Below the pieces are notes generated by a model. The model had not been told where the DNA came from, searched no databases, and saw nothing but the letters and a program-made list of their open reading frames with translations. 64,000 nt of DNA from Escherichia coli (lineage in GTDB: Bacteria; Pseudomonadota; Gammaproteobacteria; Enterobacterales; Enterobacteriaceae): assembly GCF_003334305.1 (NCBI RefSeq), contig NZ_QOWS01000002.1, one strand, 5' to 3'. Position numbers and translations under genes: made by a program. How positions within the stretch are numbered: the stretch's first letter is position 1; each line of letters begins with the position of its first letter. Below, in pieces: positions 6,576-6,690 of this stretch.

Positions 6576-6690
6576 TGCCGGGTGCAAGAGTAAACATCTT
6601 ATGCGGGATTGCCGGATGCGACGCTGGCCGCGTCTTATGCGGCCTCCATAAGAGTAGCCCGATACGCTTGCGCATCGGGCGCTATCCTGG
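6576..6690. repeat. REP/BIME-like repetitive extragenic palindromes
   Basis: Units resembling REP consensus (GCCGGATGCG...CTTATGCGGCCTCC and AGCCCGATACGCTTGCGCATCGGGC) between convergent dbpA and ttcA. Confidence 0.55.

Follow-up and report, generated by a model that had tools for sequence, protein, structure and literature searches.

The REP units of Escherichia coli fall into the types Y, Z1 and Z2 (nomenclature of Bachellier and Gilson; Ton-Hoang et al. 2012, PMC3333891), and where two units lie in inverse orientation to one another they constitute a BIME, this arrangement being its defining feature (PMC3333891). As a substrate, TnpA-REP needs a single-stranded REP that carries a 5' GTAG tetranucleotide and a stem mismatch and that it binds and cleaves (PMC3333891), and IS1397, an insertion sequence of the IS3 family, inserts specifically in REP sequences and their loops (PMC1525189). 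At the RNA level, REPs are partly Rho-dependent terminators as well as stabilisers, and convergent gene pairs containing them show higher expression; for terminal REPs, no general effect on mRNA half-life was found (bioRxiv 10.64898/2026.03.23.713779). The supplementary data of the same preprint list REP115, of class 'Convergent', at ttcA/dbpA (MG1655 1410934-1410970). The spacer described here is this REP115 locus, a small and partly decayed REP cluster that is real but ordinary and already known. To it we add minor points: the typing of two further units, A and C, beside the known one, B; a rare allele, G6639; an IS1397 insertion in one strain; and the replacement, in evolution, of an ancestral terminator hairpin. 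The identity and folding of the units, the insertion and the replacement were shown in the present analysis. Our overall account, in which we have good confidence, is of a relic REP115 cluster whose B and C hairpins most likely protect mRNA 3' ends, at which termination is probably Rho-dependent, and which took the place of the ancestral hairpin.

In the window, i.e. the whole 64-kb stretch of E. coli DNA that was analysed, dbpA and ttcA converge on a spacer of 128 nt (6563-6690), within which three REP-derived units were found; the cluster lies wholly between the two stop codons and is thus extragenic (Table 1). Window positions were obtained by subtracting 1,404,322 from MG1655 coordinates, and the REP115 interval converts to 6612-6648, which takes in unit B only and leaves units A and C outside. 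The locus is the same as that of MG1655, from which the spacer differs at two bases only (6603 and 6639). A 451-nt query round the spacer found a match of >=95% identity in 5393 of 5426 complete E. coli genomes, and one of 100% in H15; 33 genomes were without a match to this dbpA-ttcA segment, and six matches lay on records labelled as plasmids.

Table 1. Positions, in window coordinates, of the REP-derived units and associated features of the dbpA-ttcA spacer.
Feature	Position	Strand	Basis or remark
dbpA stop codon	6560-6562	+	left edge of spacer
Unit A, decayed Y-type REP remnant	~6576-6609	+	orientation same as unit B
Unit B, canonical REP, REP115 orthologue	6610-6647	+	covariance model, hairpin
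TGGC loop of unit B	6625-6628	.	IS1397 insertion point and target duplication in SC418
B-C linker ATAAGA, 6 nt	6648-6653	.	sequence; between CTCC tail of B and GTAG of C
Unit C, decayed Z1-like REP, orientation opposite to B	6654-6681	-	hairpin, inverted repeat, E. albertii orthologue
ttcA stop codon	6691-6693	-	right edge of spacer
C-rich, G-poor stretch of ttcA read-through RNA, past unit B	6499-6615	-	within published Rho-binding peak

The RefSeq annotation of MG1655 used here shows no REP in the dbpA-ttcA spacer. It shows none at the yaaX-yaaA spacer either, where the GenBank MG1655 record has one annotated; the RefSeq copy therefore appears to be without any repeat features, and the absence of a REP from its dbpA-ttcA spacer is meaningless.

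The initial annotation had placed two to three REP-like units between the two stop codons, and the number holds, the units comprising one canonical REP (B), one decayed hairpin (C) and one remnant that does not fold (A). Unit A reads TTGCCGGGTGCAAGAGTAAACATCTTATGCGGGATTG, with head TGCCGGGTGC and tail CTTATGCGGGA; unit B reads TGCCGGATGCGACGCTGGCCGCGTCTTATGCGGCCTCC; and unit C consists of GTAG followed by GCCCGATACGC-tt-GCGCATCGGGC. For an independent comparison, a covariance model of 11 REP units from other MG1655 loci (REP24, 26, 104, 117, 118 and 120, with coordinates from the supplementary data of the preprint) was run over the whole 64-kb window with filters off. The search with a REP model that had been suggested as a check bore out unit B, which is the top match of the 64 kb (25.4 bits, E 1.4e-4), and did not by itself bear out the others: unit C, on the minus strand, ranks sixth with 10.9 bits and E 1.1, which is not significant alone, and unit A has no match at E<=10 anywhere in the scan. 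Of the three units, only B thus reaches window-wide significance with a REP model. In other Escherichia spacers the orthologues of unit B score 31-42 bits (41.7 in E. whittamii, 40.5 in Escherichia sp. MOD1-EC7003 and 35.4 for the common E. coli allele), and the degenerate E. albertii copy scores 22.1 bits. The E. albertii orthologue of unit C (GTAGGCCCGATAAACTTGCGCATCGGGCA) reaches 29.4 bits with E 1.5e-5, from which we conclude that unit C is a genuine REP whose E. coli copy has decayed.

Pairwise alignment assigned a type to both of the weaker units. Unit A is nearest the Y type, with 27 of 37 positions identical to REP118a, and unit C is nearest Z1, with 23 of 29 identical to REP120b; neither value was equalled by any of 2000 shuffles. 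In unit B, a lower stem of the Y type is joined to an upper stem and loop that are Z2-like, and the stem mismatch sets GC at 6618-6619 opposite TT at 6635-6636. Against Rfam, unit B gave a weak and partial match to naRNA4 (REP325, RF02564) at 6607-6643, with 21.6 bits against a gathering threshold of 59.5, and a REP pattern of fixed spacing found no match with up to 3 mismatches, the top of unit B being longer than the 12 nt that the pattern allowed. With the E. coli REP family (Y, Z1 and Z2; PMC3333891) the units share the form of imperfect palindromes of ~28-38 nt with an internal GC/TT mismatch, the head GCC(G/T)GATGCG, the tail CTTATC(C/A)GGCC and, 5' of unit C, the GTAG tetranucleotide. 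They depart from the typical types in that unit C has C-G at a pair that is G-C in Y and T-A in Z, and in that unit B joins a Y stem to a Z2-like top and bears the tetranucleotide CTCC.

The exact REP head GCCKGATGCG occurs three times in the 64-kb window, against 0.42 expected, and only the occurrence at 6611 has REP context; the copy at 30197 is intragenic. Matches to the head or to the covariance model at 30197, 33067/33113, 33584 and 47712, all within coding sequence, were set aside as chance. The third head, at 34449, is a lone one in intergenic sequence. It belongs to a stretch (34421-34470) in which a hairpin and T-run resembling an intrinsic terminator (AACCGCAAC...GTTGCGGTTTTTT) are directly followed by a perfect REP head (TTGCCGGATGCGG) that lacks a corresponding tail, and which may hold a half-REP remnant. 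A further intergenic hairpin (TGCCTGATTTTACAAACGAATCAGGCTCAT, 57038-57067), shortly past the end of an ORF at 57009, resembles a REP at its head and foot (12.5 bits and E 0.42 with the REP model) and may be either a short REP-like element or a plain terminator.

Closer to the cluster, the 10-mer TGCCGGGTGC occurs twice, in the last codons of dbpA (6539-6548, Cys-Arg-Val) and as the head of unit A (6576-6585). A REP origin of the dbpA 3' end, from the REP-like TGCCGGGTGCGG at 6539-6550, was considered and rejected: these bases encode Cys-Arg-Val-Arg, and the C-terminus is conserved in all 46 loci compared. TGCCGGGT is present also in genera that have no REP at all. To judge from this conservation of the C-terminus, which extends to REP-less genera, the dbpA copy of the 10-mer is ancestral coding sequence and not REP-derived.

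The REP/BIME call of the initial annotation holds. It is upheld by the match of unit B to an independent REP model, by the orthology of that unit with REP115 and by the inverted B/C pair with its 6-nt linker. Units B (+) and C (-) stand tail-to-tail in inverse orientation, which is the generic arrangement of a BIME, and like the BIMEs of E. coli they form an extragenic pair with a short linker between convergent genes. The pair nevertheless fits neither BIME class. A BIME-1 would have a Y and a Z1 unit on either side of a long L linker, in which an IHF site is often present; the linker here is of 6 nt, the IHF consensus WATCAANNNNTTR matches nothing in 6501-6760, and allowing one mismatch gave no match within the spacer either. 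A BIME-2 would be built of tandem Y/Z2 repeats in multiple copies, with S linkers; here there is a single pair, and unit C is Z1-like rather than Z2. Units A and B, for their part, do not alternate; they share one orientation, as direct repeats. The most fitting description of B and C is that of an atypical BIME in partial decay, outside both classes.

The tetranucleotides bear on mobility. Unit C retains GTAG at 6654-6657 (+ strand), and in E. coli unit B has CTCC at 6644-6647 in place of CTAC, the complementary reading of GTAG, which is found in E. whittamii and in the MOD1-EC7003 lineage. Unit B is therefore without an intact tetranucleotide, and unit C is without the canonical mismatch geometry. 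From the CTCC of unit B in E. coli, the cluster is probably no longer mobile, and by these features of its sequence it is probably no longer a good RAYT substrate. As DNA, the cluster is a leftover of the spread of REPs, a process ascribed to the RAYT/TnpA-REP transposase, and it remains a target for REP-specific insertion sequences.

Insertion of this kind has occurred at the locus itself. In strain SC418 (NZ_LR778147) an annotated IS1397 interrupts the spacer (positions 4230-5665 of the extracted locus, L004), with the junctions ...GACGCTGGC|TGAACTGCACCCC... and ...GGGGTTCAGTTCA|TGGCCGCGTC..., which place the element in the loop of unit B, between the equivalents of 6628 and 6629, with a 4-bp duplication of TGGC. 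The earlier suggestion that these repeats can act as IS target sites is thus borne out by an actual insertion. A 44-nt query spanning the junction of a REP half with IS1397 found 801 places in 593 genomes at >=95% identity, and 100% identity in SC418 only; near-identical REP halves therefore border IS1397 throughout E. coli, and the insertion at the REP115 locus is a single event, found in SC418 only among the 5426 genomes. Compared with known IS1397 target sites, the SC418 element sits in the loop of the same REP, and the window itself is without the insertion. In SC418, intR and xisR adjoin ttcA; in the window (6691-9510), uspF and ompN follow directly after ttcA, which indicates a strain without the Rac prophage that is found at the ttcA 5' end in MG1655.

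Folding of each unit, likewise suggested as a check, separated B and C, which fold better than shuffled sequences, from A, which does not (z -0.4 on the plus strand and +0.2 on the minus strand). For unit C the folding energy is -15.4 kcal/mol (z -2.6) for the plus strand and -18.7 kcal/mol (z -4.2) for the minus strand. On the plus strand, the window allele of unit B folds at -21.8 kcal/mol (z -2.35) and the MG1655 allele at -26.1 kcal/mol (z -4.5). This difference traces to one of the two bases at which the window departs from MG1655. At 6639, in the tail of unit B, the window has G for C, so that the lower stem has a G.G mismatch in place of a G-C pair and the hairpin loses ~4 kcal/mol of stability as plus-strand RNA and ~7 as minus-strand RNA; at 6603, in the tail of unit A, it has G for T. 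Alleles were counted with 45-nt queries centred on the base, so that the exact word of 28 nt must include it. By these counts G6639 is rare (34 of 5426 E. coli genomes, with C6639 in at least 4061), and at 6603 G is found in 1010 genomes and T in 2384. With G6603 and G6639 together, the tails of units A and B in the window both read TCTTATGCGG, a shared tail that could have arisen by point mutation or by a short conversion event involving the two adjacent units.

In ten E. coli spacers the stems are weakened or shifted by additional changes, e.g. in strain 141 and, as a 1-nt deletion, in WP3-W18, and the persistence of G6639 in 34 genomes makes strong selection on the full stem of unit B doubtful. 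Among 12 Escherichia spacers, 90% of the cells in the B and C stems are paired; no compensatory covariation was detected in these stems, and most pairs never vary, so that the comparison is uninformative either way. The 7-bp lower stem of unit C, which starts 10 nt past the ttcA stop codon, and most pairs of unit B are invariant from E. coli to E. albertii, and the loops and flanks vary.

Comparison across genera shows what occupied the site before. With a degenerate DNA pattern that represents a DbpA peptide, 46 loci were recovered from Enterobacteriaceae, among which Salmonella and E. fergusonii are not represented, and dbpA and ttcA converge in all 44 of those that extend far enough. In Enterobacter, Lelliottia, Leclercia, Silvania, Klebsiella oxytoca, Huaxiibacter, Pseudenterobacter, one Enterobacteriaceae isolate and two Citrobacter isolates, the spacer measures 34-54 nt and carries one hairpin, GCGTCTCAG-loop-CTGAGACGC, with a variable loop and, in two Enterobacter, the variant GCGTCCCG; examples lie at 5686-5717 of locus L044 and at 6399-6422 of L037. 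A hairpin of this type is present in 27 of 28 spacers outside Escherichia and the REP-bearing Citrobacter, the exception being a Citrobacter MAG (L031) whose 44-nt spacer has an unrelated hairpin, GGGGCGG...CCGGCCCC, and no REP. It is terminator-like on both strands, with T-rich sequence after it on each, and is absent wherever REPs are present. In the other Citrobacter (spacers of 48-105 nt), one or two REPs stand in its place. Within Escherichia, E. whittamii and the 'E69' lineage have spacers of 94 nt with B and C only, unit B having CTAC in the former and CTAA in the latter; E. albertii has a spacer of 102 nt with a degenerate B and a canonical C; and the forms that include E. coli reach 115-128 nt by the addition of unit A, a 34-nt insertion that is confined to them and that the spacers of E. 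whittamii, 'E69' and E. albertii lack.

REPs thus replaced an ancestral, bidirectional terminator-like hairpin in Escherichia and in some Citrobacter, once or several times. We put at somewhat under an even chance the reading that the REP invasion switched 3'-end formation of ttcA, and perhaps of dbpA, from intrinsic termination to Rho-dependent termination with hairpin trimming, the invasion having occurred in the lineage leading to Escherichia and in part of Citrobacter, once or independently.

The terminator role that the initial annotation had suggested for such elements agrees with published data, which come from MG1655, i.e. from another strain than that of the window, and which put both RNA 3' ends and Rho binding at unit B. 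The bidirectional terminator no. 113 (MG1655 1410927-1410973, window 6605-6651), which was found in log and stationary phase and goes back to an earlier survey with 306 such terminators, corresponds to the hairpin of unit B, at -26.1 kcal/mol; an in vitro Rho-binding (rut) peak on the minus strand extends over it (MG1655 1410799-1411007, window 6477-6685); and a bicyclomycin-sensitive transcript (1410132-1410912) overlaps the rut peak (bioRxiv 10.64898/2026.03.23.713779, with supplementary data). In our own analysis, the minus-strand RNA past unit B (6615-6499) contains 29-32% C and 9-14% G in 78-nt windows. No T-run follows unit B on either strand (ATAAGAGTAG on plus, CGCATAAGATG on minus), and a terminator scan called neither B nor C, neither having a T-run on either strand; its sole match was a weak 6-bp stem at 6674-6691. 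The locus occupies the same position as bidirectional intrinsic terminators do, but with REP hairpins that are without flanking A and T tracts. Most likely, the B and C hairpins, lying in the 3' UTRs of both converging mRNAs, define and protect the mRNA 3' ends, and termination itself would probably be Rho-dependent, because the hairpins have no U-tract; the published rut peak and the base composition of the RNA past unit B agree with this. In the case of ttcA, Rho loading would take place immediately beyond unit B, on RNA that is rich in C and poor in G, and exonucleases would then trim the transcript back to the hairpins; this order, Rho termination and then trimming, is what we infer. The proposed role is like that of REP325/naRNA4 (RF02564), with partly Rho-dependent termination and 3' protection, except that here one good unit and two relics lie between convergent genes.

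Other explanations agree with parts of this evidence. Were unit B a classical Rho-independent bidirectional terminator, RNA polymerase would stop at the hairpin itself, an explanation that the missing T-run, the failure of the scan to call unit B, and the overlap of B with both the Rho-binding peak and the bicyclomycin-sensitive transcript make improbable. The cluster might, alternatively, be a purely selfish and neutral relic with no role in dbpA or ttcA expression, its RNA 3' ends being incidental to a stable hairpin. Unit A no longer folds and unit C scores 10.9 bits only, a decay of A and C that is expected of neutral relics; the CTAC of unit B, kept in E. whittamii, has mutated to CTCC in E. 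coli; and stem-breaking variants persist, not only as G6639 but also in strain 141 and as the WP3-W18 deletion. Since the stems show no covariation, their conservation could reflect recent common ancestry. Against neutrality, it is the lower stem of C, together with the majority of the pairs of B, that stays invariant, loops and flanks being variable, and the published 3' ends and Rho binding coincide with the hairpin. The REPs, moreover, lie exactly at the place of the ancestral terminator, which argues that some hairpin was always kept there. On balance we regard neutrality as unlikely, and retain protection of the 3' ends by the B and C hairpins as the preferred account.

A role of unit C in tuning TtcA synthesis is not very probable in our estimation. 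By analogy with a mechanism that Liang, Rudd and Deutscher (Mol Cell 2015) reportedly described for REPs located no more than 15 nt from a stop codon, ribosomes that terminate on ttcA would run into the hairpin and stall, and rescue by tmRNA would leave less TtcA. The distance from stem to stop is suitably short (10 nt, 6690-6681), the hairpin is stable on the minus strand, at the energy and z value given above, and throughout Escherichia the lower stem of C is conserved, as is its placement with respect to the stop codon. Unit C is, however, a short and decayed REP, and the ancestral hairpin of other genera likewise lies near the ttcA stop codon, so that the proximity may reflect no more than a compact spacer. 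As for coding capacity, two short ORFs, 6490-6675 on the minus strand and 6609-6812 on the plus strand, had been judged beforehand to be most likely artefacts of the repeats, and this judgement stands. They are indeed present, as open frames of 61 and 67 codons, and that they encode real small proteins is nonetheless extremely improbable: neither has an NCBIfam match, both are unannotated in RefSeq records of identical sequence and in MG1655, each is mostly antisense to a conserved gene (dbpA or ttcA), and among Escherichia lineages the spacer shows length differences of 34, 26, 13 and 10 nt, none of them a multiple of three, so that no frame is kept. Upstream of dbpA, a proline-rich ORF of 57 codons (4986-5159) matches the annotated small protein YnaL in position, length and product and is a real short ORF, unlike the two in the spacer.

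As a catalogued E. coli REP in a typical position, the cluster matters little beyond its correct annotation, and the practical gains are modest: neither short ORF need be counted as a gene, the label of REP relic can be given to units A and C, and the strain of the window carries a rare allele with a weakened stem. The forms of the spacer, i.e. the ancestral hairpin, one REP, B and C, A, B and C, the stem weakened by G6639 and the IS1397-disrupted unit, make up a natural series of alleles in which the contribution of a REP, beyond that of a plain terminator, could be measured. The comparison across genera offers a tidy case of REPs taking over the site of an ancestral terminator, and with it what could become a natural test bed for the still-debated role of REPs in 3' UTRs.
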